Part shown: piece by piece, positions 5,671 to 32,000 of the stretch
How positions within the stretch are numbered: position 1 is the stretch's first letter
Layout: every line of letters starts with the position of its first letter
Source of the DNA: Geotalea uraniireducens Rf4
GTDB lineage: Bacteria; Desulfobacterota; Desulfuromonadia; Geobacterales; Geobacteraceae
NCBI RefSeq assembly: GCF_000016745.1
Contig: NC_009483.1
Location: 2,880,001-2,912,000 of the forward strand
Length of the DNA stretch: 32,000 nucleotides
Direction of reading: 5' to 3'
The notes under the pieces: generated by a model
The model's input: only the letters and a program-made list of their open reading frames with translations
Databases searched by the model: none
What the model was told of the DNA's origin: nothing
Translations under genes and position numbers: made by a program

Positions 5671-5722
5671 AAAAAAAAGCCGGGACCGGATATCTTTTTT
5701 AGAGATATTTCGGCAACCCGGC
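5671..5722 (-). terminator. Intrinsic terminator forming the expression platform of the GEMM-I riboswitch
   Basis: The minus-strand RNA GCCGGGUUGCCGAAAUAUCU-CUAAAAA-AGAUAUCCGGUCCCGGC is followed by UUUUUUUU (5678-5671). Its 5' arm is the 3' part of the aptamer, so the two folds are mutually exclusive. Confidence 0.7.
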
Positions 5723-5783
5723 TGTCTCCTGGAGACCCAATAGGCTTTCCGCCCCACCTTCACAGGTGGTTTAGTATTATCGT
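5704..5783 (-). promoter_or_regulatory. GEMM-I (c-di-GMP-I family) cyclic-dinucleotide riboswitch aptamer
   Basis: The minus-strand RNA is ACGAUAAUACUAAACC-ACCU-GUGA-AGGU-GGGGCGGAAAGCCUAUUGGGUCUC-CAG-GAGACAGCCGGGUUGCCGAAAUAUC. It has a GNRA-capped P1 hairpin, the conserved AAACC, CG(C/G)AAAGCC and GCCGGGUUGCCGA blocks, and a second hairpin. I compared it by eye with the V. cholerae Vc2 aptamer from memory. Confidence 0.7.
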
Positions 5784-5872
5784 CTATCAGCTGATTCGAA
5801 TTTGTTGAAATATGTAATTTTTTTATCCCATAAACGCATGGGAAGTCAAGCTAATTATCCAGGACGCCAAGG

Positions 5873-18431: not shown

Positions 18432-19043
18432 ATGAAAGTTCTAATAGCCTATTATTCCATGTACGGCCACATTCACCGGATGGCCGAGGCAGTAGCCGAA
18501 GGTGCACGGGAAGTGGCCGGAGCCGAGGTCTTGATCCGCCGCGTCCCCGAAACCCTGCCGGCTGATGTACTGGAAAAAATGGGTGCTGTAGAGACGCAGA
18601 AAAAGATGGCGCAGATACCGGTCTGCACCATTGGGGAACTGGCCGATGCCGACGCGATCATTTTCGGCACCCCGACCCGGTTCGGCAACATGTGCGGTCA
18701 GATGCGTCAATTTCTTGATGCAACCGGCGGCCTCTGGATGAAAGGATCGCTGGTCGGCAAATTGGGAAGCGTCTTCACCAGCTCCGCAACCCAGCACGGT
18801 GGACAGGAATCCACCATACTCAGCTTTCACATCACCCTGCTCCACCAGGGAATGGTCGTTGTGGGATTGCCCTACGCCTTTCAGGGACAGATGCGCAATG
18901 ACGAGATAATCGGAGGATCGCCCTACGGCGCATCCACCATTGCCGGCACCCAGGGAGAACGGAGTCCGAGTGAAAACGATCTTGCCGCGGCGCGTTATCA
19001 GGGAAAACATGTGGCCTCCATTGCCGCCAGGCTGGCACGATAA
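18432..19043 (+). CDS. wrbA: NAD(P)H:quinone oxidoreductase, WrbA-type flavodoxin-like protein
   Basis: [13 protein letters not shown]..., GTPTRFGNM and [12 protein letters not shown] motifs. GGGAGG RBS. Confidence 0.92.
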
Positions 19044-19076
19044 CCCTACGGAACCAGGCAGTTTTTTTCACGCACC

Positions 19077-19106
19077 AAAAGTAGGCGCTTTTAAGCGCCT
19101 ACTTTT
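19077..19106 (+). terminator. Intrinsic (A/U-tract flanked, potentially bidirectional) terminator after wrbA
   Basis: AAAA-GTAGGCGC-ttttaa-GCGCCTAC-TTTT. The palindrome extends to about 20 bp (19071-19112). Confidence 0.75.
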
Positions 19107-19127
19107 GGTGCGTCGTTGCGTGAGACA

Positions 19128-19135
19128 TATCTTGT
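19128..19135. repeat. Left copy of the 8-bp target-site duplication (TATCTTGT)
   Basis: An identical 8-mer directly abuts both IS ends (19128-19135 and 20193-20200). Confidence 0.85.
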
Positions 19136-20192
19136 CCTGATTAGCGCCAATCTTCAGCCAGTCTGAGATTGTGCTCGGGATGCTTGCCAGTAGTAGCCGC
19201 CGCCGAGATCAGTCGCGAGAGCATGCCGCGCAGATCCTTCCGGCGGTTGAATCGGTATTGAACCTCAGCCAGGTAACGAGTTCCATACTTTTCGAAATCA
19301 AATGCATGGTACGTTCCAGAGATCGACGTCTTGAGGTTGCCGAGAATGGTATTGACCCAATTGAAACACACAATGTCGGTACTCTTGCGTTTCTTCCCGA
19401 CAATGGTTGGGGTATGGAAACATCCAGCCTCGGTAACTGCACGAAAGCAGGCCAGTCCGTCGCTTACCACTGTCGCTGAAGCTGACAGTGACCGTTTTGC
19501 CCATTCGGTGACTACTTCGCGGTTAAAGGCTGGCACCTTTGTAAACACAGCACGAAGTGGATGGCCCTTTTCATTGGTTTCAACAGCAGCAATAAACGGC
19601 GTCTTGTTTTCCGAACCTCGCCCGGCCTTGCCTCCTGGGTTTTCTCCACCCAGGTAGGCATCATCTACTTCGACCCGGCCGAGCAAAATCGTGTCCTGCT
19701 CCTGTTCAACCATAACTTGCATGAGCTTGTGCTTCACACGCCATGCGGTTTTGTAGCAAACACCGATCAGGCGCTTCAACTCCAGAGCCGAGACATTGTT
19801 CTTGGTTTGCGTGAGAAAGTACATGGCCTGAAACCATTGGACCAGCGGCAACTTGGTTGAGTGAAAAATCGAGCCTGCGGTCAGCGTTGTCTGGGTATGA
19901 CACCGATTGCACTGAAATGTTTTGACTTGTGCATGCCAGACTACACAGTGGCTGGTACTCTGACAGGAAGGACATTTGAAACCCTGGGGCCAGCGGCTCT
20001 TTTCCAAGATCGCTGAACATTGCTCTTCAGTGCCATAGCTGTACAAAAAGTCGTTCAAGCTGAGCCCTTGTTGAAACTGAAAGTGATTCTTCGTCATAGT
20101 GGCCTCCTTGGCTTATTTCACTATGACACTACTCTAGACATGTGACAGAATACGTCCTTTTCTCCATTGGCTGAAGATGAGGGCCAATCAGG
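19136..20192 (-). mobile_element. Complete IS1595-family (ISXO2-like) insertion sequence, 1057 bp
   Basis: Imperfect terminal inverted repeats: CCTGATTAGCGCCAATCTTCAGCCA at 19136-19160, and the reverse complement of 20168-20192, CCTGATTGGCCCTCATCTTCAGCCA. It has a single transposase ORF and flanking 8-bp direct repeats. Confidence 0.88.
19141..20097 (-). CDS. IS1595-family transposase (N-terminal zinc ribbon plus ISXO2-like DDE domain)
   Basis: 318-aa ORF. Zn-ribbon CPSC...CNRC. DDE-type blocks VEVDDAYLGG, VVSDGLACF and YLAEVQYRFNRR. The stop codon lies inside the left IR. Confidence 0.9.
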   Translation of the reverse strand: MTKNHFQFQQGLSLNDFLYSYGTEEQCSAILEKSRWPQGFKCPSCQSTSHCVVWHAQVKTFQCNRCHTQTTLTAGSIFHSTKLPLVQWFQAMYFLTQTKNNVSALELKRLIGVCYKTAWRVKHKLMQVMVEQEQDTILLGRVEVDDAYLGGENPGGKAGRGSENKTPFIAAVETNEKGHPLRAVFTKVPAFNREVVTEWAKRSLSASATVVSDGLACFRAVTEAGCFHTPTIVGKKRKSTDIVCFNWVNTILGNLKTSISGTYHAFDFEKYGTRYLAEVQYRFNRRKDLRGMLSRLISAAATTGKHPEHNLRLAEDWR

Positions 20193-20200
20193 TATCTTGT
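20193..20200. repeat. Right copy of the 8-bp target-site duplication (TATCTTGT)
   Basis: See the left copy. Confidence 0.85.
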
Positions 20201-20347: not shown

Positions 20348-21736
20348 ATGACTGCCAAACCTTTTCTAATAGATTCCCATGCCCATATCTACGGCCTTGA
20401 ATTCAGCAACGATTTCGACGAAATGCTGCAACGGGCGGCCGAGGCGGGGGTAGAACAGATCATCGTCGTCGGCACCGACCTTGAAACAAGCAAGGACGCC
20501 TGCGAACTGGCCGCAAAATATGAAAACATCTACTGTGCTGTCGGCATTCACCCCCACGATGCATCACGCGTCACGGAAAAATGTTACGATGTGATCCGGG
20601 ATATGGCCAACGGTAACGACAAGGTAGTAGCCATCGGAGAGATCGGTCTCGATTTCTACCGCGACCGTTCACCGAGAGAAATCCAGGAAACGGTATTTCG
20701 CCGCTTCATCAACCTGGCCAGGGAGCTTTCCCTGCCGATCATCGTCCATGACCGTGATGCCCATGAACGGGTGATGACGCTGGTTAAAGAAGAAAAAGCC
20801 GCCGATGTCGGCGGCGTCTTCCATTGCTTTTCCGGCGATCTGGAAATGGCCAACGCATGCATAGCGCTGGGATTCTACATCTCCATCCCTGGCACCATCA
20901 CCTACCCGGGCAATGAAGCACTGCGCCAGGTGGTCAGAGGGGTAAAGGTCGAGAAGATGCTCGTGGAAACCGATTGTCCCTATCTGACGCCGGTTCCCCA
21001 CCGGGGCAAGCGTAACGAACCTGCATATGTCCGGTTTGCCGCGGAAAAGATCGCGGAGTTGAAGGGGCTCACGTTGGAAGACGTCAGTCGCATCACCACC
21101 CTCAATGTCCAGAGTCTGTTCAGCATCGGCAGGAAAAACCAGAACGCCCAGATCGCCTACCGCATCAGAAACTCGCTCTACCTGAACATAACCAACCGCT
21201 GCTCGAACCGCTGTTCGTTCTGTGCCAAATTTGAGGATTTCACGGTAAAAGGACACTACCTGCTCCTTGACCATGAGCCTGATTTTTCAGAGGTGATGGC
21301 GGCAATCGCCGCGCATAAGGGGTATGACGAAGTGGTTTTCTGCGGGTACGGCGAGCCGCTTTTGCGCCTTGATCTGATCAAGGAGGTCGCTGCTGCCCTA
21401 AAAAAACAGGGGATGAGAATCAGGATCAATACGGACGGCCAGGCAAACCTGGTCTATGGCAGGAATATACTGCCGGAACTTGCGGGACTGATCGACACCG
21501 TTTCCGTCAGCCTCAACGCGGCAGACGAAGATACCTACGACCTGCTCTGCAATACGCCGTTCAGCAAGGATGGTTTCACCGGCGTCTGCACATTTCTCCG
21601 GGAAGCCAAACAGTACATTCCGCAGGTGATTGCCAGCGCCGTCACCGTTCCGGGTCTGGACATCGCAGAAGTAAAGAGACTTGCCGAATCGCTCGGCGTC
21701 GAATTCCGGGAACGGGAATATACGGAAGTCGGCTAG
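20348..21736 (+). CDS. Fusion protein: TatD-family metal-dependent hydrolase (N-terminal) plus a radical SAM domain (C-terminal)
   Basis: 462-aa ORF. The TatD part covers roughly residues 1-260 (IDSHAH, GEIGLDF, VHDRDAH, FHCFSG, ETDCPYLTP). The radical SAM motif CSNRCSFC (CxxxCxxC) is at residues 285-292 (nt 21200-21223), followed by GYGEPLL and a SAM-binding-like sequence. Confidence 0.85.
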   Translation: MTAKPFLIDSHAHIYGLEFSNDFDEMLQRAAEAGVEQIIVVGTDLETSKDACELAAKYENIYCAVGIHPHDASRVTEKCYDVIRDMANGNDKVVAIGEIGLDFYRDRSPREIQETVFRRFINLARELSLPIIVHDRDAHERVMTLVKEEKAADVGGVFHCFSGDLEMANACIALGFYISIPGTITYPGNEALRQVVRGVKVEKMLVETDCPYLTPVPHRGKRNEPAYVRFAAEKIAELKGLTLEDVSRITTLNVQSLFSIGRKNQNAQIAYRIRNSLYLNITNRCSNRCSFCAKFEDFTVKGHYLLLDHEPDFSEVMAAIAAHKGYDEVVFCGYGEPLLRLDLIKEVAAALKKQGMRIRINTDGQANLVYGRNILPELAGLIDTVSVSLNAADEDTYDLLCNTPFSKDGFTGVCTFLREAKQYIPQVIASAVTVPGLDIAEVKRLAESLGVEFREREYTEVG

Positions 21737-22591: not shown

Positions 22592-22972
22592 ATGGCAAAA
22601 AATCTGGAAATCTACAAATGCGAAAGCTGCGGAAACATCATTGAAATCCTTCATTCCGGCCCGGGAGACCTTGTCTGCTGCGGCAGTCCAATGCAATTAC
22701 AGGTTGAGAATACGGTAGACGCATCCCGTGAAAAACATCTGCCCGTTCTGGAAAAAGCAAACGGTTCCGTCACCGTCAAGGTCGGCAGCGTACCCCATCC
22801 CATGGAGGAACAACACTATATCGAATGGATTGAAGTCATCGCCGACGGCACTGTTTACCGTCAGGCTTTGAAGCCGGGAGATGCGCCGGAAGCAACCTTC
22901 CCCATCACGGCCGGAAGTATTACGGTACGCGAATACTGCTCCCTCCACGGCCAATTGTCAACCATCGGCTAA
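22592..22972 (+). CDS. dfx: Desulfoferrodoxin (2Fe superoxide reductase)
   Basis: N-terminal desulforedoxin-like CESCGN...VCCG. C-terminal SOR domain with [19 protein letters not shown] and a C..H ligand pair near the C-terminus. AGGAGG RBS. Confidence 0.93.
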
Positions 22973-23007: not shown

Positions 23008-23862
23008 ATGACCAGTTCGCTGCTGTTCAATGTGACAACCGTTTCATACCTTCTGGCTACGGTAGTATTCTTTGCCTACCTGGCCAGTAAAAATCGCATC
23101 CTCGGCTTGATGGGAAGCATAGCGGCATATTCCGGCTTCGTTGTGCAGACGGTCGCAATAGGGCTGCGTTGGAGAGAATCATACCTGATTGGACATGGTC
23201 ATGCCCCCTTGTCCAATCTGTATGAATCTGTAGTGTTCTTTTCCTGGACGATCATACTGATTTTTGCCCTGCTCGATCTCCGTTACAAGTACCGGGTCAT
23301 CGGCGCCTTCGTCGTTCCGTTCGCCCTCATGGGCATGGCCTGGGCGCAACTGGGCCTCAGTAGCGGCATAGAACCCCTGGTGCCGGCACTGCAGAGCAAC
23401 TGGCTACTTTACCACGTTATCACCAGTTTTCTCGGCTATGCCGCGTTTGCCGTTGCCTGCGGTATTTCCATCATGTACCTGATTAAAGCCAGGCAGAAGT
23501 CAGGTGAAGTCAGTGGTCAGACCGACAGCATTGTCGGCGCATTTCCCGTTGCCAGAGTACTGGACGACCTCAACTACAAGGCAATCATGATCGGCTTTCC
23601 GCTGCTGACCCTCGGCATTGTTACCGGTGCTGCATGGGCGAATTACGCCTGGGGTACTTACTGGAGCTGGGACCCGAAGGAAACCTGGTCGCTGATTGTC
23701 TGGTTCGTTTACGCAGCTTTTCTTCATGCCCGCATCACCAAGGGATGGGTAGGGAAAAAGGCGGCCATTCTCTCCATTGTCGGTTTTGCCGCCACCATCT
23801 TCTGTTATCTTGGGGTCAATCTAATTTTATCAGGACTGCACAGCTATGGCGGCAGAATGTAG
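23008..23862 (+). CDS. ccsA: Cytochrome c biogenesis protein CcsA/ResC family (heme-handling membrane protein)
   Basis: Polytopic membrane protein with the Trp-rich WWD-type motif WGTYWSWDPKETWSL and conserved His residues. Confidence 0.88.
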   Translation: MTSSLLFNVTTVSYLLATVVFFAYLASKNRILGLMGSIAAYSGFVVQTVAIGLRWRESYLIGHGHAPLSNLYESVVFFSWTIILIFALLDLRYKYRVIGAFVVPFALMGMAWAQLGLSSGIEPLVPALQSNWLLYHVITSFLGYAAFAVACGISIMYLIKARQKSGEVSGQTDSIVGAFPVARVLDDLNYKAIMIGFPLLTLGIVTGAAWANYAWGTYWSWDPKETWSLIVWFVYAAFLHARITKGWVGKKAAILSIVGFAATIFCYLGVNLILSGLHSYGGRM

Positions 23863-23876
23863 TCATCCACACGTTA

Positions 23877-23906
23877 AAAGGCCTGCATCGAGCAGGCCTT
23901 TTTTCT
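23877..23906. terminator. Bidirectional intrinsic terminator
   Basis: AAAGGCCTGC-atcga-GCAGGCCTTT with TTTTT downstream and an A-run upstream. Confidence 0.75.
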
Positions 23907-24020
23907 TCCCAAAGTTGAACATCTCCATCTCTCTAGTGAAGCTCTGCTTTACCTTAACGCAAATCCCATACTTTCTGAGTAATTGCGTTCCCCAAGCGGA
24001 AGTTTGAGTACGAGGAACCT

Positions 24021-24500
24021 CTACCAGCAGATTCTCCCCTCATCTTCGACTGTGGCAACCGTCGTGGCGAACGATAACTGACCATGGCCCCTCAACCTGC
24101 CTATCACATCCGCGAAGGCTCCGGTGCCGGTCAGGTTGTCCAGACTTGAATTAATGGTGTAGATATATGGAGTATCGGTCGGGGTGAGCACTGACTTGTC
24201 TTGAACGCTCAAGGTCCCCAAGGAACCGAAATCAAAGGTCATGGCGTTCGTCGGGTATATCTTGCCATCGTCGCCATTCTTGACCTCGACCATTACCAGT
24301 GACACTATTGCCTGGATAGGGGCTTGCTCATCAATTCTGACAAGAGCGGTTCCGGCATATTTTCCGTAGGGGAGCATTGGATCGATCGCAGAGGTGGTGA
24401 CCTTCATCTCGACCTCATGGCACTTCGAATTGGCCCAGGACTGCCCGGCAAAGACTATCACGAGACTTGCTGCTGCCAGATAACTAAAAAGATTTCTCAT
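24021..24500 (-). CDS. Secreted hypothetical protein (possible dirigent/allene-oxide-cyclase-like beta-barrel)
   Basis: The ATG at 24500 follows AGGAGG. Signal peptide MRNLFSYLAAASLVIVFAGQSWA. The C-terminal TGTGAFADVIGRLRGHG resembles the GxGxFAxxxG motif of dirigent-like barrels, but this is a weak call from memory. The track's 47 extra N-terminal codons are unsupported. Confidence 0.7.
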   Translation of the reverse strand: MRNLFSYLAAASLVIVFAGQSWANSKCHEVEMKVTTSAIDPMLPYGKYAGTALVRIDEQAPIQAIVSLVMVEVKNGDDGKIYPTNAMTFDFGSLGTLSVQDKSVLTPTDTPYIYTINSSLDNLTGTGAFADVIGRLRGHGQLSFATTVATVEDEGRICW

Positions 24501-24690
24501 TTTTTCCTCCTGATAATTGATTATAATTACTGCGTTCCCAAAAGCTGTCACAAACGCTGAGAGACAACGCCCAACGGCCTGGCATTGAAGCCGGCCTGAG
24601 TCCCCTCCTTTCCGAACTCGGTAGAGTTCCGTGATTCCCATATCGTAGCTTAATTTGACTCTCGTCTACGTAGCCTTCCCACTTGGTCTA

Positions 24691-25911
24691 TCACGATGCC
24701 AGGCTGTCTGCCCGCCTCGGTTGGGCCTCTGCCACCCTAACATTGAATTGGTTTCTCCACATCAGGAACACGACCAAGGCCATGAGGCCCGAATAAGTTG
24801 CCATCGCATAGAAACCGGCTTCCGGGAAACCTACTGCATCAATAGTTCTTCCCGTCACATAGGGCCCCAGCGAATTTCCCACATTTAAGAAGGTGTTGAG
24901 CACGCCATAACCAAGGCCAATATGTCTTGCTCCCACGACGTTCAGAACGAGGGTAAACACAGAAACCGGCACGAGTCCAACCGCTATGCTTAATAGAGCT
25001 ATCAATGGTGCCGGGGCATCTGTTCGGGTGAGCAACAAGAACGAAGCTGCCATCATGATTCCGGCAGTAACAATATAGAAATAGCGGTAATTGAAGCGGT
25101 CGATTAGATAGCCGATAAAAGGTGAAAGGACTAACGCGCCAAGCATGATCGAACTTACCAAAAAATGGGAAGCGCCAAGCCCCTTTCCGATTCCGGCAAT
25201 GAGATCCATGCCAAAGGTCAAGAACGAGAGGCAGGCCGCATTGAAAAGGAGCCAGATACTCGCAAGCAGGACAATGCCTACGCCTATTTCCCTCCGAGGG
25301 GAGGTGGCTGCGTCGGGGCTCCCGGATGCTTCAACCGCTTGTGGTGCCGAGGATAGTGGCCTAAAAAGCAGATAGGCGACGATGGCCACACCGTTGCAGG
25401 CAAAAAGGGTGTTCCTCCATCCCAGACTCTCCCCGAGAAGCCCGAGGGTATTCATCGACAGGAGCACCCCTACTGGCACAGAGGTATTGAATATTCCCAT
25501 GACAAAACCGATCTTCCCTTTATCAAATAACCTGGTCAGAATCTGGGGACCCAATATGGCAAGCATCATTGCACCGACGCCGGCTACAAGTCTTCCAGCT
25601 ATCAGCCACCAGTAATTCTGAGCGAAGGCTGCCGTCGTATTGCCGATGACAACCATCGCCAGGGAAAAGGTGCCTATCACACGGATGTTATGCCTATCCG
25701 CCCAAATTCCTCCCGGAATGGCGATTAGCACTCCCGGCAGGGAGAAAACTCCCATAAGAGTGCCAACCTGGCTATAGTCGAGAGGTATTTCCTTCTTTAG
25801 CAGATGTACCAACGGAGGGATGGATTGCAGTGAAATCACATACGTCAATGTGAATACATAAGCTACAGCCAAAGCAAACCATTGGCCCCGTGTGAAATGT
25901 CTTGTTGCCAT
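24691..25911 (-). CDS. MFS transporter
   Basis: 406-aa ORF with about 12 hydrophobic segments. MFS signature-like GGIWADRHNIRVIG between TM2 and TM3. Confidence 0.9.
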   Translation of the reverse strand: MATRHFTRGQWFALAVAYVFTLTYVISLQSIPPLVHLLKKEIPLDYSQVGTLMGVFSLPGVLIAIPGGIWADRHNIRVIGTFSLAMVVIGNTTAAFAQNYWWLIAGRLVAGVGAMMLAILGPQILTRLFDKGKIGFVMGIFNTSVPVGVLLSMNTLGLLGESLGWRNTLFACNGVAIVAYLLFRPLSSAPQAVEASGSPDAATSPRREIGVGIVLLASIWLLFNAACLSFLTFGMDLIAGIGKGLGASHFLVSSIMLGALVLSPFIGYLIDRFNYRYFYIVTAGIMMAASFLLLTRTDAPAPLIALLSIAVGLVPVSVFTLVLNVVGARHIGLGYGVLNTFLNVGNSLGPYVTGRTIDAVGFPEAGFYAMATYSGLMALVVFLMWRNQFNVRVAEAQPRRADSLAS

Positions 25912-25930
25912 AGATTTCTCAGTTCCGGTT

Positions 25931-26224
25931 TTAATTCATGGCTGCTATCTTTTCGGCCTCGATCAAGCGCCGCTCATCCATCAGAGGGAAAATGTCTCTG
26001 CTCGTATACTTGTAGAAGGGGGATTTGATGATCGTTTCCCCTAACTCATCATTGGATTCGACATCTAGAATGTATGCGCCCCCGGCTATGCCTGCAAAAT
26101 GATAATTCCCCTTCAGTTTCCCTTTCTCTTTTAACGCCGCAAAGTAATCAGCGCAGCGGCCTGAAGCTTCCAAAGCCTCTTTTGGGATTTGACCTATGGC
26201 CTTTTCTATTATAAGGAACAGCAT
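25931..26224 (-). CDS. Muconolactone-isomerase-like (ferredoxin-fold) small protein
   Basis: MLFLIIEK...HFAGIAGGAYILDVESNDELGETIIKSPFYKY...IFPL parallels the MLF...AG...Y.I.DV.S.EEL...P pattern of muconolactone delta-isomerase family proteins (from memory). The ATG at 26224 follows GGGAGGGG. An alternative GTG at 26245 overlaps the upstream stop. Confidence 0.6.
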   Translation of the reverse strand: MLFLIIEKAIGQIPKEALEASGRCADYFAALKEKGKLKGNYHFAGIAGGAYILDVESNDELGETIIKSPFYKYTSRDIFPLMDERRLIEAEKIAAMN

Positions 26225-26241
26225 TTCCCCTCCCGGTGCTT

Positions 26242-26592
26242 TCACTTTGTGATCATTTTGGACTTATTACATATGTCGTTTTTCTCGAAATCAAAGCCGA
26301 AATAAGCCCCCAGACCTGACGAAATACCGTTCAGTCCTCCCATGATAAAGGAGAGTCGGACCGTCTCCCGTATCTCTTCTTCCGTAGCGCCGACTCTCCG
26401 CGCCATATCGGATATCTTGGCACATCCTATCTTGGAACCGTATGCAGCATCCATCAACATGATCATGAGGAGTTTGATCTTGCTGGAGAGTGCCCCGTCT
26501 TTGTAGGCGAACTCTCTCATCTCGATGATCTTTTCATAAAATACCGGATCGCTTTCTTTAATAGCAGCCATAAAACTCGGAATCTCGACCAT
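26242..26592 (-). CDS. Carboxymuconolactone decarboxylase (CMD/AhpD-like) family protein
   Basis: 116-aa ORF with the CMD-like helical pattern (ALSSKIKLLMIMLMDAAYG...EEEIRETV). I saw no CxxC peroxidase motif. Confidence 0.8.
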   Translation of the reverse strand: MVEIPSFMAAIKESDPVFYEKIIEMREFAYKDGALSSKIKLLMIMLMDAAYGSKIGCAKISDMARRVGATEEEIRETVRLSFIMGGLNGISSGLGAYFGFDFEKNDICNKSKMITK

Positions 26593-26631
26593 GTTTCCTT
26601 CCCTTTCTGTGGATTAGCTACCGGCGCTCAA

Positions 26632-27780
26632 TCAGACGGCAGCCTCTTTTCCGCCGTAAAGGTCAATCGCGTTGACATCGCAGACCTCGTAACAGCAGCA
26701 ACATTCGATGCACTTGTCTCCTTCTACCACGACCTGCTTCCTGTTGCCGCCATTGGCCTTGAGCTGCATGGCTTTGACCGGGCAACTTTTCAGGCAGCGC
26801 AAGCAGAGCTTGCATTTTTCTTCAAGAACTTTCGGGTAAACCCTGGTCGGAGCGTAGACCATCCTGGTAAATCGCTCCAGGTTGCGGATCTGCACTTTCT
26901 TGGGGAACAGGTAGTCCTCGATGATCAGCTCATCTTTGGACACGCCGACGAGGTCTATCTGGTCTATGTCCACTGTTCCCCAACAGTTGTCCCCTGCCGC
27001 TTTCAGCACTGGGATGTCGTCCCATCTGACTCCGATCATGTAGGCGAGCACTGAATCCAGTGCCACAGGGTCATCCGTTGCGAACACGCAGCCGAAATTC
27101 CTGACCAAGCCGGCAGCGCCCGGGCCATCGCCTTCCAATCCGCAGATAGCGTCCATGATGGTCAGCTTTGGCTTGATCAAATGGGCCAGACTGGCGACTA
27201 TCTTTCCGAAATCCTCCGGCTTTGGTGCTCGGCAATGGATTTCTCCTTTCCACTTGCCAGGAATCATCCCATAAAGATTTTTCACCGCACCGGACATTGT
27301 CATATAGGTGTGGGTCTTGAATTTAGGGACGTTGATGACCGCATCGCATTCATATGCCAGGGAGGTGATCAGGTGTTCATCCAGTTTTTCAAGGTAGGGG
27401 GTCTTTATCTTCGTTATCTTGCATCTCTCGAAGACCACCTTTTCCGCACCTTCTTCTTCGACAATGCGCTCCATGGACGTTTCTTTCCAGACGTTGTCAA
27501 TGTCCCATTTCCCGATGAGACCAGCCGGACTGTCTCCGACCAGCGGATGACTCCCATGTTCTTTAACCAGCCTGATCACTGCCCTGACGACTTCCGGGTG
27601 GGTGCAGACATGTGCATCCGGCGGATGCGCGGCCATCATGTTCGGCTTGATTAGAACCCTCCCTCCTTTGGGACCGAGGAGGCGAGTCGGGTCACCGAGA
27701 CCAGCAAACGCTTTTTTTACCGCGCCATAAACCTTTTCGAACTGGTACTCTTCACATCTTTGCAACGAAACAATAGGCAA
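26632..27780 (-). CDS. DUF362-domain protein with a C-terminal 2x[4Fe-4S] ferredoxin domain
   Basis: DUF362-like N-terminus (VLIKPNMM...THPEVV). C-terminal CKLCLRCLKSCP and CIECCCCYEVC motifs. TTG start at 27780 behind GAGAGGTG. Confidence 0.85.
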   Translation of the reverse strand: MPIVSLQRCEEYQFEKVYGAVKKAFAGLGDPTRLLGPKGGRVLIKPNMMAAHPPDAHVCTHPEVVRAVIRLVKEHGSHPLVGDSPAGLIGKWDIDNVWKETSMERIVEEEGAEKVVFERCKITKIKTPYLEKLDEHLITSLAYECDAVINVPKFKTHTYMTMSGAVKNLYGMIPGKWKGEIHCRAPKPEDFGKIVASLAHLIKPKLTIMDAICGLEGDGPGAAGLVRNFGCVFATDDPVALDSVLAYMIGVRWDDIPVLKAAGDNCWGTVDIDQIDLVGVSKDELIIEDYLFPKKVQIRNLERFTRMVYAPTRVYPKVLEEKCKLCLRCLKSCPVKAMQLKANGGNRKQVVVEGDKCIECCCCYEVCDVNAIDLYGGKEAAV

Positions 27781-27800
27781 CTGACACCTCTCTGGCCACT

Positions 27801-29210
27801 CTAGTCTCGGGGAGCAAACGGCACGTATTTATTCAGGAATTCTTCGGCTTGTTCCACAAGCGATTTCGCTACTATGAAAGGATTACCTTTGGCCCATTCA
27901 GGCCTGGTTGCGTCCAGTGCCATCTTGGTGACCGTTTTTTTTCCATCCAGCTCTTGTGCCATCGGATCGATATTTATGGCTGGAGCATGAGGAATGAGAT
28001 GAATGTCCTTTGCCGGGTCAAACCGCGTGGATAAGACCCACTGACGCTGCTCCGGGATCGAGACATCCACATCGGCGTCGGTAACAAGTACCTGTTTTAT
28101 CGGTAACACCGCCATCGAGAAACGAATCACCCGGCGCAGGTCGTTCTCGTTTCGTTTCCGTATGGAAATTGCGGCCTGGTGACCTCCGCTCCCCGGCACG
28201 ATATGTATCTGCGCCACATCGACACCGCTTTTCAGCAACGTTTTGGTCAATGTCGCCTCTATCATGAGGTCCTGGATCACCGTGGTCTCCACCGGAGGAA
28301 TTCCTGCGTAAGTACCAGAGAAAACCGGCTCATCGCGGTGTGTGACGGCCTGAATTTCCATGACCGGGGCAATGCCCTGTTCACTTAGGTAGCCGTTTAC
28401 CTCACCGAATGGCCCTTCGTCCTCATAAGACTCCGGGTGAACCACCCCTTCAAAAACCACCTCAGCACCTGCCGGAAAGTCCAGCTCCCGGCATATTTCC
28501 CCGTAGGCTACCTCCAGGGGTTGGCCTTTTATCCCACCGGCCAGTGCCATTTCGTCATCGTCCACTCCCGGTGTGTCGATGGCCGCCAGCAGATAAAAGG
28601 GATCCCCTCCAAAGGTCACCACAACCGGTGCCGGCTCCCCCTTTTCCCAATAGTTCCAGATGGCCCGCCCCAAGCCCCTCTCTTTATTGGTAAAGATGGT
28701 GAGATGATTCCTGTCCTTCACCTGTAACCGGTTGACCGACACGTTGGCGGCCCCATTTCCCGGATTGCGCACCCGGACCACCCCCATGGTGAAGTAGGGG
28801 CCACCGTCGCAAGGATTCCATACGGTTTGCGGAAAGCGGCGGATATCTACCGCTTCGTGGAATTGTTTCTTCTCCTTGCAAGGGGCCTTTTCTGCCACCT
28901 TGGGGGGGCACCATCTATTTCTATCAGTACGTTTGATGTATTCCTGAACCAGTTGACTTTCTTCAGTTCCCAACAGGAGAGCCAGTCGCCGCCGCGTAGC
29001 GAAAGCATTGACGAGCAGGGATGCCTCTGAATGCAGCAGATTCAGAAAGTGGAGAGCCGGAAGGTTCCTTTTGAAGCCAGAGCGGGTGATAGGTCCTATC
29101 GCGTGCACTTCATCAACTGGAACGTCTATTTCCACAAGATCTTCTTCTCGCTTGAGCAAGCAGATCCAGTCCCGCAGATCGTTAAGCTCCACACCATGAG
29201 GCTTACGCAT
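27801..29210 (-). CDS. UbiD-family (prFMN-dependent) decarboxylase/carboxylase
   Basis: DGGPYFTMG, NVSVNRLQV, TFGGDP and EGPFGEVNGY motifs. 469 aa from the ATG at 29210. The track's 68-codon N-terminal extension overlaps the upstream flavoprotein gene and is rejected. Confidence 0.9.
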   Translation of the reverse strand: MRKPHGVELNDLRDWICLLKREEDLVEIDVPVDEVHAIGPITRSGFKRNLPALHFLNLLHSEASLLVNAFATRRRLALLLGTEESQLVQEYIKRTDRNRWCPPKVAEKAPCKEKKQFHEAVDIRRFPQTVWNPCDGGPYFTMGVVRVRNPGNGAANVSVNRLQVKDRNHLTIFTNKERGLGRAIWNYWEKGEPAPVVVTFGGDPFYLLAAIDTPGVDDDEMALAGGIKGQPLEVAYGEICRELDFPAGAEVVFEGVVHPESYEDEGPFGEVNGYLSEQGIAPVMEIQAVTHRDEPVFSGTYAGIPPVETTVIQDLMIEATLTKTLLKSGVDVAQIHIVPGSGGHQAAISIRKRNENDLRRVIRFSMAVLPIKQVLVTDADVDVSIPEQRQWVLSTRFDPAKDIHLIPHAPAINIDPMAQELDGKKTVTKMALDATRPEWAKGNPFIVAKSLVEQAEEFLNKYVPFAPRD

Positions 29211-29218
29211 ATACGCCC

Positions 29219-29911
29219 TTACCCGTGTGAGACCGGATTCGCCTTCTGACACGCGTCGGCCAGCCTTACTCCCAGATCGAAAGCCTCTTTCAGGTAAACC
29301 TGATTCCGCTTTACCATGGTCTCCACGGCATTGGGAGGCAGATTCATCCTTTCCGCAAGCCCGCTTAATTCCGGCTCTTGCATTGCTACCTGGCCGTGGG
29401 ATTTCAAACCGCACCCGTTCAAGACGCCAACGACGTTTGGCCTTCCATTGTTGACCTTCTCGAAGAATTCGATCATGCAGTCATGCGCCGGCTTGGCTTC
29501 CTTCTCATCAGGGGAGGAGTTGGTGGTCACCAGGGCGAAATACTTGGCATCCTTGAACCGGCTATGGAATACCGGGCCTTGGGGAGTTATCTCTATCTTC
29601 ATGAAAGGGCGAAGACGATCGATGAGGCATTTAAGAGGCCCGGTCATGAGCCGGCCGTATATTGCGGTGCTGAAGATGATCGCGTCTGCACCCTGGAAGA
29701 GATCCTCTATCATTTTCCAATCGTCTTGGCCGCACTTGCCTGTCTTGTCGCAGGCCAGGCATCCAATGCAGGGCTTTACGTTCATTTTATGCGCGTAATA
29801 CTTCGAACCCTTCATGCCCCGGCTTTTGGCACCCTCTATCACACTCTCAGCCAGGATATCCGAGTTGCCTTTTTCCCGTGGACTTCCGCAAATGCAGAGA
29901 TATGAATTCAT
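29219..29911 (-). CDS. Iron-sulfur flavoprotein (NADPH-dependent FMN reductase / flavodoxin-like fold with a Cys cluster)
   Basis: The CGSPREKGNS P-loop-like FMN site and the compact Cys motif CIGCLACDKTGKC are typical of Isf-type Fe-S flavoproteins. ATGA overlap with the upstream gene. Confidence 0.8.
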   Translation of the reverse strand: MNSYLCICGSPREKGNSDILAESVIEGAKSRGMKGSKYYAHKMNVKPCIGCLACDKTGKCGQDDWKMIEDLFQGADAIIFSTAIYGRLMTGPLKCLIDRLRPFMKIEITPQGPVFHSRFKDAKYFALVTTNSSPDEKEAKPAHDCMIEFFEKVNNGRPNVVGVLNGCGLKSHGQVAMQEPELSGLAERMNLPPNAVETMVKRNQVYLKEAFDLGVRLADACQKANPVSHG

Positions 29912-30753
29912 TGTCGCTCCTTCTTATTGTATCTGTGTAAGAAACCGATGGATTTGATCGCCATTTCGACAGCCCTGTGGCTGTCCCGGCTCAATTCGAC
30001 GTTTATGAGCCCCTCAAAGCTTATTTGAGACAGAGCGTTCATCACCGGTTGAAAATCAATGTCTCCGTCGCCGAAGAACAGATGTTCGTGCACGTCTCCT
30101 TTTATGTCCTCTATATGGATGGTCTTGATCCTGTCTCTATAGGTGAGTATGGCTTCCTCGATACTTCGCGTTTCCGAGCATCGGACGTGGCCGATATCAA
30201 GGGCGAGATGCAGGCGATCTTTCAACAACGGCTCTTCGCACAGCCTGTCGTATTCCGTCAGGTCGTCGATGTACATACCCGGCTCCGGCTCCAAAGCGAT
30301 ATTCATCCCCTGCTTGTCCGCATATTCAGCCACATCTGCCAGCCCCTGTACCAGGATGGGCCACGCCAACTCCGCGTCCACCTGGGGGCTGAGCCTGCCG
30401 GAACAGATGGTGATCGCCTCCGCCTGAAGGGTCTTTCCGAGATCGATTGCTTTTTTGGTGAAGGTGATTCTTTCTTCACGCCCCTCGTTGCTGACGAAAC
30501 CCGGCTCATGCTTGCGCCAGCGGTCGAGGAAGTAGCGCGCCCCGGTTTCTACGACGACCTTCAGGCCGCGTTGCTCCAATATTCTCGATAGAGAGGCGAT
30601 CTCCTCATCGGTGGTCTTCAGGATGTTGCAGTGATTATGGTCGACCGTAATGGCAATGCCGTCGTAGCCCAGTTCGGCAAGTATCTCGATGGCGTCCTCG
30701 ATGCTGTGGTGTGCAAAGCCATTGGTGTTGTAACCGAACCTGAGTCTCTTCAA
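29908..30753 (-). CDS. Xylose-isomerase-like TIM-barrel protein (sugar phosphate isomerase/epimerase/dehydratase superfamily)
   Basis: 281-aa ORF with FGYNTNGF at the N-terminus. Metal-ligand-like E (ALEPEPG), D/H (LDIGH) and E (HIED...E) pattern of the AP_endonuc_2 fold. The TTG start overlaps the upstream stop (TTGA). Confidence 0.85.
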   Translation of the reverse strand: MKRLRFGYNTNGFAHHSIEDAIEILAELGYDGIAITVDHNHCNILKTTDEEIASLSRILEQRGLKVVVETGARYFLDRWRKHEPGFVSNEGREERITFTKKAIDLGKTLQAEAITICSGRLSPQVDAELAWPILVQGLADVAEYADKQGMNIALEPEPGMYIDDLTEYDRLCEEPLLKDRLHLALDIGHVRCSETRSIEEAILTYRDRIKTIHIEDIKGDVHEHLFFGDGDIDFQPVMNALSQISFEGLINVELSRDSHRAVEMAIKSIGFLHRYNKKERQ

Positions 30754-32000
30754 GCCAATACTCCTTCACTTTCCTGTAGCTTATTCAAAAACATTTTCCT
30801 GAGCTGGGGAATATCGATCTTGTTCAACTTTGCTTTCGGCAATGTTTCACAGTAGACGATATGTTTCGGGGTCTTGTAGTCCGGCAGGCGCGACTTGCAG
30901 AATTTTCTCACTTCGCTGGGAGGAAATTCGCCTCTTGTCACCAGAAACGCGGCTAACGCCCCACCGGAGACCTCATCGTTCACGCCTATGACTACCGATT
31001 CTTCAATACGAGGGTGGTCCGAGAGAATTGCGTTGATTTCTTCCGGAGCCACCTTCTTCCCCGCGACGTTAACGATATTGCCGTAACGTCCATAAATAAA
31101 CAGTCTGTTGTCCTGGTCGAGCGAGCCAATGTCACCGGTGAAGAACCAGGTCGGATGCCTGTGCAACCCCATCACATTGCCATCCGGATCCAGATAGCCA
31201 AGGCTTATGGCAGGGGTCTTTACCAGGATGCGCCCCTCCTCTATCTTGACCTCCACGTTGTCCAGTACCGTCCCCACGCACTGAGGGGGGAGCTCTTCTC
31301 CCTCTCTTTCCACAGCCAGAAGGGAGGTTTCGCTGGTGGCGTACATCTCGCGCACCCATATGCCGTATTTCGCCAGCAGGAGCTCTTTTTCGCTTCGGGT
31401 CAGCCGGGATGAACCGGAATACCATCTGGTTCCCTGGTCGATGACCACATTCCTCACCACCGGCATTCTGCTAACGACCTGGTACATAAAAGCCGGTGCC
31501 TTGACCAACGAAGGTTTATGTTTGGTGACCAGCCCCAGAAAGGTCTTCGGCAGGAACTTTTTGATAAGCAGATTCTTGGCTCCTGTATCCAGGGCTGCCA
31601 TTACCGGCATAATGCCTGCCGAGTGATATATCGGCGCAGCGGTGAAGACACAGTCGCTCCCTGTGGTCCCGTATGCGGCATTGGAAAGTCTCGCCGCCTG
31701 CAAGATACTCTCTATGGAGTGGACAATCCCTTTCGGTTTCCCGGTCGTACCGGAAGTCAAAAGGAAAAGTGCAGGCGAACCGTAGTCTATTTCGATGTCA
31801 TAGTCTTGCGTCGGCGTCTTGCAGTCGGCTTTTTCCAGCGAGTCTTCCACTGCTATGTACGTAATGTCGAAGGTCTGCGACAGGTTTCCCTTTTCTCTTT
31901 GCAGCGTGGCGGGATCCAGGGGGAGTACCCCCATACCTAAACGTACAGCTCCGAAGAGTGTGGCTAGAAACTCGAAGGGATCCGCAATAGCAACTCCAAT
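30750..32000 (-). CDS. AMP-forming acyl/aryl-CoA ligase (adenylate-forming enzyme). The N-terminus is outside the window.
   Basis: LLTSGTTGKPKGIVHS (A3 motif), YATSE, FTGDIG and the C-terminal K motif. The frame stays open upstream of the track's Met (…IGVAIADPFEFLATLFGAVRLGMGVLPLDP) to base 32000, so the gene is 5'-truncated by the window. Confidence 0.88.
   Translation of the reverse strand: MGVAIADPFEFLATLFGAVRLGMGVLPLDPATLQREKGNLSQTFDITYIAVEDSLEKADCKTPTQDYDIEIDYGSPALFLLTSGTTGKPKGIVHSIESILQAARLSNAAYGTTGSDCVFTAAPIYHSAGIMPVMAALDTGAKNLLIKKFLPKTFLGLVTKHKPSLVKAPAFMYQVVSRMPVVRNVVIDQGTRWYSGSSRLTRSEKELLLAKYGIWVREMYATSETSLLAVEREGEELPPQCVGTVLDNVEVKIEEGRILVKTPAISLGYLDPDGNVMGLHRHPTWFFTGDIGSLDQDNRLFIYGRYGNIVNVAGKKVAPEEINAILSDHPRIEESVVIGVNDEVSGGALAAFLVTRGEFPPSEVRKFCKSRLPDYKTPKHIVYCETLPKAKLNKIDIPQLRKMFLNKLQESEGVLA

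Follow-up and report, generated by a model that had tools for sequence, protein, structure and literature searches.

A probable orphan type II polyketide synthase-like biosynthetic cluster with a near-orphan UbiD protein in Geotalea uraniireducens

Eight minus-strand genes at the end of a 32,000-nucleotide stretch of the Geotalea uraniireducens Rf4 chromosome (NC_009483.1, positions 2,880,001–2,912,000; the window) encode, among others, a UbiD-family protein and an adenylate-forming ligase. A first-pass annotation had read them as a self-contained operon for the uptake, coenzyme A (CoA) activation and (de)carboxylation of an aromatic or unsaturated carboxylic acid. We found that these genes (window positions 24691–32000) are the 3′ end of a larger cluster and not a stand-alone eight-gene operon, and that the cluster is probably an orphan type II polyketide synthase (PKS)-like biosynthetic cluster that builds and exports a small molecule. 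The presence in the same cluster of genes for a ketosynthase (KS), its catalytically dead partner, an acyl carrier protein (ACP), an inositol-3-phosphate synthase (MIPS), a pair of TrpB-like proteins and a MarR regulator points to biosynthesis rather than degradation and speaks against an autonomous (de)carboxylation module.

The eight genes form the 3′ end of a 19-gene cluster

Positions are given in window coordinates (1–32,000); the genes of interest make up the last 7.3 kb of the cluster. Domains in the window were called with Pfam gathering scores on the listed open reading frames (ORFs), and subfamilies with NCBIfam/TIGR cutoffs. As shown in Table 1, all eight ORFs scored above the gathering score for the domain that the first-pass annotation had named, so its domain assignments were correct, as was its expectation of an anaerobic host. 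The host proteins are G. uraniireducens Rf4 (an anaerobe of the Geobacterales) entries ABQ26694–ABQ26705, all with generic names.

A contig (L001) that is 100% identical to window positions 23659–32000 extends 8.7 kb further, and the genes upstream of the ligase on this contig have the same orientation and are tightly packed. The cluster runs ~10.7 kb past the end of the window, giving a total of 19 genes in ~18 kb. A syntenic metagenome contig (contig M), with 93–98% DNA identity to the window, was the only one on which the 5′ end, encoding MarR and DUF169 proteins, was seen; unrelated, divergently oriented genes lie beyond. From 5′ to 3′, the cluster first encodes MarR, DUF169, TrpB-like protein a, a zinc alcohol dehydrogenase (ADH), MIPS, TrpB-like protein b and a pyrroline-5-carboxylate (P5C) reductase-like protein. 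These are followed by the KS, its inactive partner, which resembles a chain-length factor (CLF), the ACP, a first TIM barrel (TIM1) and the adenylating ligase, and finally by a second TIM barrel (TIM2), an Fe-S flavoprotein, UbiD, a DUF362-ferredoxin fusion, a carboxymuconolactone decarboxylase (CMD)-family protein, a muconolactone isomerase (MIase)-like protein and a major facilitator superfamily (MFS) transporter. The cluster is probably under MarR control. Its genes have a G+C content at third codon positions (GC3) of 0.53–0.70, modestly below that of housekeeping genes (0.66–0.79), which hints at a horizontal origin but does not prove one.

Three components of a minimal type II PKS-like system are present: a KS with its catalytic triad, an adjacent partner that lacks the Cys and a discrete ACP. 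The KS retains the Cys-His-His triad, and its ACTAS, HGTGT and GHTNG motifs are conserved in the Geotalea, Nitrospirota and Desulfobacter lineages described below. It matched FabF-family models with 317 bits, and its best match in the PDB was 9s5h_B (2e-82), with the highly reducing (HR) type II KS Iga11 (6kxd, 7.5e-61) following after the FabF enzymes. In the partner (409 aa, 24% identical to its KS), the Cys is replaced by Phe, one His by Asn and the other by Glu or Ser in all three lineages. The pair thus bears the sequence signature of a catalytic KS with a non-catalytic partner. The ACP (82 aa) is a PP-binding protein in which the phosphopantetheine Ser is conserved in the motif LDSINALEL (Ser of DS), and it scored 35–46 bits against ACP models.

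The P5C-reductase-like protein is a 242-aa Rossmann-fold protein with weak similarity to its namesake, and both TrpB-like proteins scored above the TrpB-like equivalog cutoff. The two copies differ at the position that presumably corresponds to Glu109 of Salmonella TrpB, which is Glu in copy a but Gln in copy b; both residues are conserved in the Geotalea and Nitrospirota lineages.

The cluster is conserved as a unit in distant lineages

We compared the cluster in three lineages, namely Geotalea (with contig M), one Nitrospirota metagenome-assembled genome (MAG) and one Desulfobacter MAG, in which 21 kb of the locus were covered. The Nitrospirota MAG contains one-to-one orthologs of 19/19 genes with 27–75% amino acid identity (37–75% for the window genes); MarR, DUF169 and TrpB-like protein a were compared from contig M. 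The gene order is the same except that CMD directly follows the ligase and DUF169 lies at the opposite end. A transposase flanks the Nitrospirota cluster. The arrangement is not due to chance, since assemblies made independently agree with 100% identity and another phylum has the same genes.

The Desulfobacter lineage was found by searching with the DUF362 protein and shares nine core genes. Their products are 44% identical to the Geotalea and 38% to the Nitrospirota protein for ACP, 49% and 46% for TIM1, 36% and 34% for the ligase, 68% and 77% for CMD, 42% and 44% for KS, 32% and 34% for the KS partner, 58% and 62% for DUF362-ferredoxin and 58% and 57% for the MIase-like protein; DUF169 is 48% identical to that of contig M and 25% to that of Nitrospirota. 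An AroB-like cyclase of the dehydroquinate synthase (DHQS) fold stands in place of MIPS, and a multidrug and toxic compound extrusion (MATE) efflux pump (MatE) in place of the MFS transporter. The locus additionally encodes two class III aminotransferases and a carboxylic-acid-reductase-like protein, and no UbiD, Fe-S flavoprotein, TIM2, TrpB-like, ADH or P5C-reductase-like gene was found in these 21 kb. UbiD, the Fe-S flavoprotein and TIM2 therefore co-vary, being present only in MIPS-type clusters (n = 3 lineages), and UbiD is dispensable to the cluster family, as judged from its absence from the 21 kb examined.

The Desulfobacter gene order, ACP-TIM1-ligase-CMD-aminotransferase-KS-partner-DUF362-MIase, interleaves CMD, DUF362 and the MIase-like gene, which belong to the window half in Geotalea, with KS and its partner, which belong to the upstream half. 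This argues against a chance juxtaposition of two pathways. If two unrelated operons lay side by side, one with the KS, ACP and cyclitol genes and the other with UbiD, DUF362, CMD, MIase and MFS, the separability of UbiD, the Fe-S flavoprotein and TIM2 from the core would be expected. However, the TIM2 gene is joined by 4-nt overlaps to both of its neighbours, those for the ligase and the flavoprotein, and the counts of promoter-like and terminator-like sequences across 23800–32000 were not above shuffled expectation. The same 19 genes also occur together in Nitrospirota, where CMD has moved to directly after the ligase. Together with the interleaved order in Desulfobacter, these findings make two separate operons most improbable.

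Scans based on the DUF362 alignment of 185,579 species genomes and 241 million JGI metagenome records revealed no further close lineage, all others being at ≤36% identity; these scans used two short peptide patterns each and did not return G. uraniireducens itself, so their sensitivity is limited. Within the limits of these pattern scans, the cluster family is conserved as a unit across phyla and is very rare. This very patchy distribution, with three lineages, bears on a further possibility, namely that the cluster is biosynthetic but makes a cell-bound, primary-type molecule such as a lipid head group, a quinone-like cofactor or an inositol-derived membrane component. MIPS homologs frequently act in making inositol lipids or solutes, the KS and ACP resemble FabF and AcpP, and UbiD enzymes act in quinone biosynthesis. 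We nevertheless consider a cell-bound product unlikely, given that distribution, a CMD-like protein with one close representative among 1.84 billion, a UbiD below the quinone-type equivalog cutoffs, a dedicated efflux pump and MarR regulator, and a cluster that contains no prenyltransferase, CDP-alcohol transferase or acyltransferase gene.

The ligase gene lies next to those for ACP and TIM1, and the TIM barrels and MIPS resemble cyclitol enzymes

The ligase is a stand-alone adenylate-forming enzyme of the ANL superfamily that reached no NCBIfam equivalog cutoff, and its best PDB match was oxalate-CoA ligase (2e-31). The genes for its orthologs (45% identity in Nitrospirota) always adjoin those for ACP and TIM1. 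The adjacency of ACP, TIM1 and ligase in three lineages points to loading of the ACP rather than to the CoA activation for degradation that had been suggested from the window, and we propose that the ligase, a core gene of the cluster, is an acyl- or aryl-ACP ligase.

The best NCBIfam match of TIM2 was IolE, myo-inosose-2 dehydratase, below its cutoff, and its PDB matches were MJ1311 and IolE only. The best NCBIfam matches of TIM1 were epimerases and IolE. TIM2 is 33% identical to TIM1 and ~30% to both TIM barrels of an ebo-like cluster in Bacillus cereus, and TIM1 and TIM2 are as close to the B. cereus barrels (~30%) as to each other. By sequence, TIM2 is a putative IolE-like cyclitol dehydratase/isomerase, and its gene is accessory. 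MIPS matches solved enzymes (7nwr, 2e-80; Archaeoglobus fulgidus MIPS, 8e-63) and is 43–46% identical to homologs in the B. cereus ebo-like cluster. A cassette of MIPS, TIM barrel and Zn-ADH also occurs at another metagenome locus. The Fe-S flavoprotein has a CxxCxxCx5C motif that is conserved in Geotalea and Nitrospirota, the Nitrospirota ortholog being 56% identical.

The ebo genes have been linked to thallusin, for which an aromatic quinoline core was proposed to arise from a cyclitol; this cyclitol would come from EboD (DHQS fold) or, in Actinomycetota, from Ino1 (MIPS) with two isomerase/dehydratases, the functions of Ino2 and Ino3 being postulated (bioRxiv 10.64898/2026.05.21.724671). 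Like the ebo/Ino systems, the present cluster family combines MIPS with two xylose-isomerase-like TIM barrels, and MIPS and a DHQS-fold cyclase are interchangeable between lineages. Unlike them, it lacks EboB (TatD), EboC (UbiA) and EboF (phosphodiesterase) and shares only MIPS and the EboE-like TIM barrels. Membership in the ebo/thallusin family was rejected on these grounds, the TatD-radical SAM gene of the window lying outside the cluster. From the ebo/Ino1 parallels, the cyclase swap and the relatedness of TIM2 to MJ1311 and IolE in the PDB, we infer that MIPS, ADH and the TIM barrels produce, from a sugar phosphate, a carbocycle that is dehydrated and may be aromatic.

The B. cereus locus (GCA_050280365.1; L011 in Table 1) is itself an ebo-like cluster with MIPS instead of EboD. 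Its MIPS gene adjoins genes for two TIM barrels, TatD, UbiA and a phosphodiesterase, and it fits the Ino1-type ebo variant that the thallusin preprint described for Actinomycetota, here in a Firmicute.

UbiD represents a distinct lineage within its family

The cluster UbiD carries the three Pfam domains of the family and scored 259.9 against TIGR00148 (cutoff 244.85). In an alignment of 33 sequences, residues N156, R161, E220, E265, G266-P267-F268 and E270 occupy columns that are invariant or at least 90% conserved, and the ligands of the metal and of prenylated FMN (prFMN), together with the Arg and E-GPFG-E residues, align to the motifs of HmfF and E. coli UbiD. These data agree with the first-pass assignment to the prFMN-type UbiD family. 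The protein fell below every equivalog cutoff, including those of the VdcC, MqnL-type, UbiD, phenylphosphate carboxylase and BagN models (PRK10922, 168.3 against 788; TIGR03701, 189.9 against 495.9; VdcC, 222.6 against 650).

Its relation to characterised enzymes was assessed as a score ranking against 40 solved UbiD sequences, not as a tree. HmfF (6h6x) and E. coli UbiD (5m1c) ranked about equal and ahead of VdcC (7ae4), with E values of 1e-46 to 1e-41; AroY (118 bits) ranked below HmfF and E. coli UbiD, and phthaloyl-CoA decarboxylase (Pcd; 8oz5, 8pmk) was the weakest of the 40 (E 1.1e-9, 40 bits). Compared with HmfF, E. coli UbiD, VdcC, AroY, TtnD, Fdc1 and Pcd, the cluster protein has the same three-domain fold and Glu-Arg-Glu residues. 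Its identity to characterised UbiD enzymes is at most about 31–35%, and it is about as distant from HmfF as from UbiD and VdcC, with Pcd the most remote. A search of 5.8 billion clustered proteins gave a single relative above 35% identity, the Nitrospirota ortholog (52%). By sequence, UbiD is a distinct, near-orphan lineage and a predicted intact member of the prFMN-dependent (de)carboxylase family. Neither the window nor any version of the cluster contained a gene for a UbiX-type flavin prenyltransferase (PF02441).

Several identities for this protein were considered and rejected. A quinone-biosynthesis UbiD or MqnL is not indicated, since the scores are far under the cutoffs (168 against 788 and 190 against 496 bits) and the cluster has no UbiA gene; the first-pass annotation had named such an identity, with an unconserved neighbourhood, as fatal to its finding, and we found the neighbourhood conserved in another phylum. 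The analogy with AroY or VdcC paired with a TIM-barrel dehydroshikimate dehydratase, raised earlier for AroY, was rejected because of the VdcC and AroY scores, the lack of VdcB and VdcD, and the confinement of the PDB matches of TIM2 to MJ1311 and IolE, with none of the AsbF type. A general UbiD clade tied to DUF362, Isf or TIM-barrel genes was not found: the three nearest non-cluster relatives (33–35% identity) occur in unrelated contexts, in neighbourhoods rich in amidohydrolase or CoA-transferase genes. As for phthaloyl-CoA decarboxylase, Pcd gave E 1e-9 against 1e-46 for HmfF and E. coli UbiD, and no ring-reductase, CoA-transferase or β-oxidation genes lie nearby.

These results bear on the catabolic reading, in which the MFS transporter would import an acid, the ligase would make its CoA thioester, UbiD would decarboxylate it and the remaining proteins would process the ring. 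Anaerobic phthalate degradation follows this logic of a UbiD enzyme with a ligase that activates the acid, the β-ketoadipate pathway is the best-known setting of the CMD and MIase folds, the transporter matches the aromatic acid:H+ symporter family weakly (33 bits), and the host is an anaerobe in contaminated sediment that degrades aromatics poorly. However, the operon runs on into genes for KS, CLF, ACP, MIPS and TrpB-like proteins, and MIPS uses glucose-6-phosphate and is hence anabolic. In Desulfobacter, CMD, DUF362 and MIase are interleaved with KS and CLF, UbiD is absent, and a MATE pump replaces the MFS transporter. Finally, Pcd is the most distant solved UbiD, and no ring-reductase, β-oxidation, thiolase or CoA-transferase gene was found in any version of the cluster. 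A catabolic role is thus very unlikely.

DUF362-ferredoxin, CMD, MIase-like protein and transporter

The DUF362-ferredoxin protein has eight Cys in two CxxCxxCxxxC motifs, all invariant, and its Nitrospirota ortholog is 66% identical. No PDB sequence match was found outside its ferredoxin domain. DUF362 belongs to the same Pfam clan as the N-terminal domain of LarA (LarA_N, DUF2088), a sister family (PMC11770544). A Foldseek search with the AlphaFold 2 model (pLDDT 90.7) returned at E ≤ 1e-3 the LarA family only, with a partial fold match (E 3e-6, TM 0.35–0.39, ~214 columns). DUF362-ferredoxin is a conserved core gene whose product is predicted to have a distant LarA-like fold. More than 2,000 relatives carry the same ferredoxin fusion, mostly in uncultured anaerobes. 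In the Desulfobacter MAG, a second DUF362 protein (318 aa, without ferredoxin, 27% identical to that of the cluster) is encoded a few kb downstream of the cluster and is directly followed by a 545-aa polyferredoxin (L015 in Table 1).

CMD is the most conserved cluster protein (75% between Nitrospirota and Geotalea, 68–77% overall). It is without the CxxC pair of AhpD, and a search of 1.84 billion proteins gave 179 representatives at E ≤ 1e-3 but just one at E ≤ 1e-30. The MIase-like protein, 58% identical in Nitrospirota, as in Desulfobacter, had 5-chloromuconolactone dehalogenase as its best PDB match (5e-5); its single-sequence AlphaFold model (pLDDT 53.8) was too low for a fold search. By analogy with family chemistry only, the pairing of CMD with the MIase-like protein suggests isomerisation and decarboxylation of a lactone- or enone-type intermediate.

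The best NCBIfam matches of the MFS transporter (37% identical in Nitrospirota) were drug-efflux groups, all below cutoff. The MATE efflux pump that fills the transporter slot in Desulfobacter points to export rather than to the uptake first assumed.

The cluster resembles ligase-primed type II PKS-like systems

The cispentacin pathway uses a free-standing adenylating enzyme to attach 2-oxoglutarate to an ACP, and a KS with its partner carries out a single elongation (PMC10698177). Like the cispentacin and coronafacic acid (CFA) systems (AmcB, AmcF-AmcG, AmcH; Cfa1, 3, 5), the present cluster has a ligase, proposed to prime the ACP, and a KS with a non-catalytic partner, and lacks a ketoreductase (KR)/dehydratase (DH) cycle. 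The best specialised matches were AmcF for the KS (210.7 bits, cutoff 325) and AmcB for the ACP (46.2, cutoff 80). The partner, a full-length 409-aa KS-like protein, differs from AmcG, a short cyclisation factor (22 bits, cutoff 80). The Geotalea and Nitrospirota clusters also lack homologs of AmcC, AmcD and AmcE (no hot-dog, short-chain dehydrogenase/reductase or aminotransferase gene) and have added cyclitol, TrpB-like, UbiD, DUF362, CMD and MIase genes. Given three models below cutoff and the full-length partner, membership in the cispentacin/CFA type was rejected.

The triacsin cluster encodes an acyl-ACP ligase (Tri29), a KS-CLF pair (Tri6/7), ACPs (Tri20/30) and the UbiD/UbiX pair Tri10/Tri9 (bioRxiv 10.1101/2021.05.12.443849). 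Likened by gene content, both systems combine an acyl-ACP ligase (a proposed one in the present cluster), a KS with a Cys-less CLF, discrete ACPs and a UbiD in one biosynthetic cluster. The triacsin cluster comes from an aerobic actinomycete and, in contrast to the present one, also carries genes for UbiX, KR, a thioesterase and two DH proteins that form a pair.

Petrobactin AsbF, AsbC and AsbD are a TIM-barrel dehydroshikimate dehydratase, an aryl-AMP ligase and an aryl carrier protein, respectively. The adjacent carrier protein, TIM barrel and ligase in our three lineages resemble this triad in logic only, since the ACP scored 26.6 bits against the AsbD model (cutoff 100) and TIM2 had no AsbF-type match at E ≤ 1e-5. 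Taken together, the cluster would work like ligase-primed minimal type II PKS-like systems but is a member of none of them by their defining features. We found in the literature no report that pairs DUF362 with UbiD or TrpB-like proteins with MIPS and no relevant report on a G. uraniireducens cluster. The gene combination had been called unrecognised at the outset, and no characterised cluster matches it gene for gene.

A proposed pathway and the role of UbiD

For the biosynthetic cluster, we propose a route whose substrate, order of steps, UbiD direction and product are deduced from the observed gene content, synteny, catalytic motifs and family memberships. The sugar-phosphate cyclase, the TIM-barrel dehydratase/isomerases and ADH would first form a carbocyclic, possibly aromatised acid. 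The stand-alone ligase would adenylate this acid and load it onto the discrete ACP rather than CoA, and KS with its dead partner would extend it by one or a few malonyl units. The ACP-derived intermediate would then be tailored by CMD, the MIase-like protein and DUF362-ferredoxin, plausibly by lactone- or enone-type isomerisation, decarboxylation and redox chemistry, as two of the family folds suggest. TIM2, the Fe-S flavoprotein and UbiD may form a lineage-specific accessory module tied to the MIPS route, contributing a single prFMN-dependent (de)carboxylation, the target being a carboxylate of ring or enoyl type. Finally, the MFS pump would export the product.

Some observations weigh against this proposal. 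No thioesterase, KR, DH, cyclase, malonyl transferase, phosphopantetheinyl transferase (PPTase) or UbiX gene was found in any version of the cluster; without thioesterase, PPTase and UbiX, genes outside the cluster would have to provide for release of the product and supply of the cofactors. The models of the cispentacin type all scored below cutoff, gene position is the only ground for a preference of the ligase for ACP over CoA, and the class of the MFS transporter is ambiguous, given its weak symporter match. The MIPS product has no carboxylate, which leaves the path from cyclitol to ligase substrate unexplained unless UbiD carboxylates. The co-variation arguments draw on n = 3 lineages, with the Desulfobacter locus seen over 21 kb only.

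TtnD and BagN are precedents for decarboxylation of a pathway acid by a UbiD-family enzyme, and together with Tri10 they favour, by analogy, the same direction for the cluster UbiD. The co-variation of UbiD with MIPS and the lack of a carboxylate on the MIPS product leave room for a carboxylating role, although we know of no precedent for UbiD carboxylation in biosynthesis. We therefore put forward, as a speculative and rather doubtful extension, that TIM2, the Fe-S flavoprotein and UbiD provide in the two MIPS lineages an oxygen-independent route from sugar phosphate to aromatic acid, in which the cyclitol would be dehydrated to a polyphenol, UbiD would carboxylate it and the ligase would trap the acid on the ACP. 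Trapping with ATP would pull the unfavourable carboxylation equilibrium, and the AroB-like product of Desulfobacter, which already has a carboxylate, would need none of the three proteins. The Fe-S flavoprotein might act in O2-free redox maturation of prFMN.

Gene junctions and other features of the window

The first-pass annotation had described eight co-directional genes joined by 4-nt overlaps or gaps of at most 39 nt. The overlaps TTGA at 30750–30753 (ligase/TIM2) and ATGA at 29908–29911 (TIM2/flavoprotein) were upheld, and the remaining intergenic gaps are 8, 20, 39 and 19 nt, none above 39 nt. A third overlap, GTGA at 26242–26245, is probably not a true start/stop overlap, because the MIase-like gene starts at ATG 26224 in the RefSeq model and the N-termini of its orthologs align there; the gap would then be 17 nt. 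The UbiD gene starts at ATG 29210, which gives 469 aa and an exact match to the database protein; a longer ORF from GTG (537 aa) would overlap the flavoprotein gene. The ligase frame is open through base 32000, so that the window holds the C-terminal 416 of its 472 aa. An Rfam scan showed no RNA element within or upstream of the cluster.

Beyond the MFS gene, 49 nt downstream, lies a co-directional ORF; its listed form has 206 aa, whereas the gene call on contig L001 gives 159 aa. It has a signal-peptide-like N-terminus from Met48 and matches no family; as it has no counterpart in the Nitrospirota and Desulfobacter clusters, it was not counted in the cluster.

Elsewhere in the window, a c-di-GMP-I (GEMM-I) riboswitch aptamer (48.7 bits, gathering score 35) lies directly upstream of a 188-aa ORF with no Pfam match; some GEMM-I variants in Geobacter sense cGAMP. 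An IS1595-family transposase belongs to an element at ~19049–20195, which contig Ga0209639_1000281 (L024), syntenic in other respects, does not contain; the element is thus a recent insertion in this genome. An unusual 462-aa fusion of TatD_DNase (303.7 bits) and Radical_SAM (74.4 bits) is not part of the cluster; GYD, desulfoferrodoxin-like and CcsA genes lie in between. Other redox genes in the vicinity of the cluster encode a second FMN_red/flavodoxin-like protein, the desulfoferrodoxin-like ORF and the CcsA-type cytochrome c assembly protein. Otherwise, the window contains housekeeping genes: dnaE, accA, lepA, lepB, a coaD-like gene and a glutamate-synthase-like trio.

Table 1. Cluster genes in the window, followed by further features of the window and of related loci
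Feature	Position	Strand	Evidence or identifier
Ligase, AMP-binding + AMP-binding_C	30750-32000	-	Pfam 93.6 + 53.2 bits; ABQ26701
TIM2, AP_endonuc_2, xylose-isomerase-like TIM barrel	29908-30753	-	Pfam 136 bits; ABQ26700
Fe-S flavoprotein, Isf-like FMN_red	29219-29911	-	Pfam 52.6 bits; ABQ26699
UbiD, 469 aa	27801-29210	-	Pfam UbiD_N 55.6, UbiD 186.4, UbiD_C 77.4 bits; ABQ26698
DUF362 fused to 2x[4Fe-4S] ferredoxin	26632-27780	-	Pfam DUF362 187.5 bits + Fer4 families; ABQ26697
CMD (AhpD fold), 116 aa	26242-26592	-	Pfam CMD 28.2 bits (cutoff 23); ABQ26696
MIase-like, 97 aa	25931-26224	-	Pfam MIase 31.5 bits (cutoff 26.7); WP_041245440; 104-aa form = Gura_2517
MFS transporter, 406 aa, final cluster gene	24691-25911	-	Pfam MFS_1 134 bits; WP_041245439
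TrpB-like paralog	L001 2984-4288		
TrpB-like paralog	L007 7646-8953		
TrpB-like paralog	L009 6374-7696		
TrpB-like paralog	L009 9955-11253		
B. cereus ebo-like cluster	L011 4656-11185		GCA_050280365.1
Second DUF362 protein and polyferredoxin, Desulfobacter sp. MAG	L015 17535-20128		
ORF downstream of MFS	24021-24641	-	No family match
CcsA-type cytochrome c assembly protein	23008-23862	+	
Desulfoferrodoxin-like ORF	22592-22972	+	N-terminal CxxC motif in translation
TatD_DNase-Radical_SAM fusion	20348-21736	+	
IS1595-family transposase	19141-20097	-	
Second FMN_red/flavodoxin-like protein	18432-19043	+	
GEMM-I riboswitch aptamer	5709-5785	-	
ORF downstream of GEMM-I aptamer, 188 aa	5066-5632	-	No Pfam match

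Implications

What looked like an operon for degradation is thus probably an orphan cluster for biosynthesis, present in strictly anaerobic groups (Geobacterales, Nitrospirota and Desulfobacter) that have barely been explored for natural products. Its enzyme set is unusual and anaerobe-specific, combining a minimal type II PKS-like engine with a cyclitol-forming module and three poorly understood protein types. It gives DUF362-ferredoxin, a member of a large family without known function whose structural likeness is limited to partial matches with the LarA nickel-pincer enzymes, a well-defined pathway setting that is conserved. The swap between MIPS and the AroB-like cyclase, and the occurrence of TIM2, the Fe-S flavoprotein and UbiD in some lineages only, amount to a natural experiment for assigning functions. 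Should UbiD carboxylate, this would be new biosynthetic chemistry and the first anabolic use of UbiD carboxylation.

Unlike other Geobacter species, G. uraniireducens releases a soluble electron shuttle (PMC4923279), which has been attributed to riboflavin (PMC6277576). An exported polyhydroxy-aromatic product of the cluster could serve this organism as a redox shuttle or metal ligand and, if redox-active, would bear on extracellular electron transfer in an organism of uranium bioremediation.

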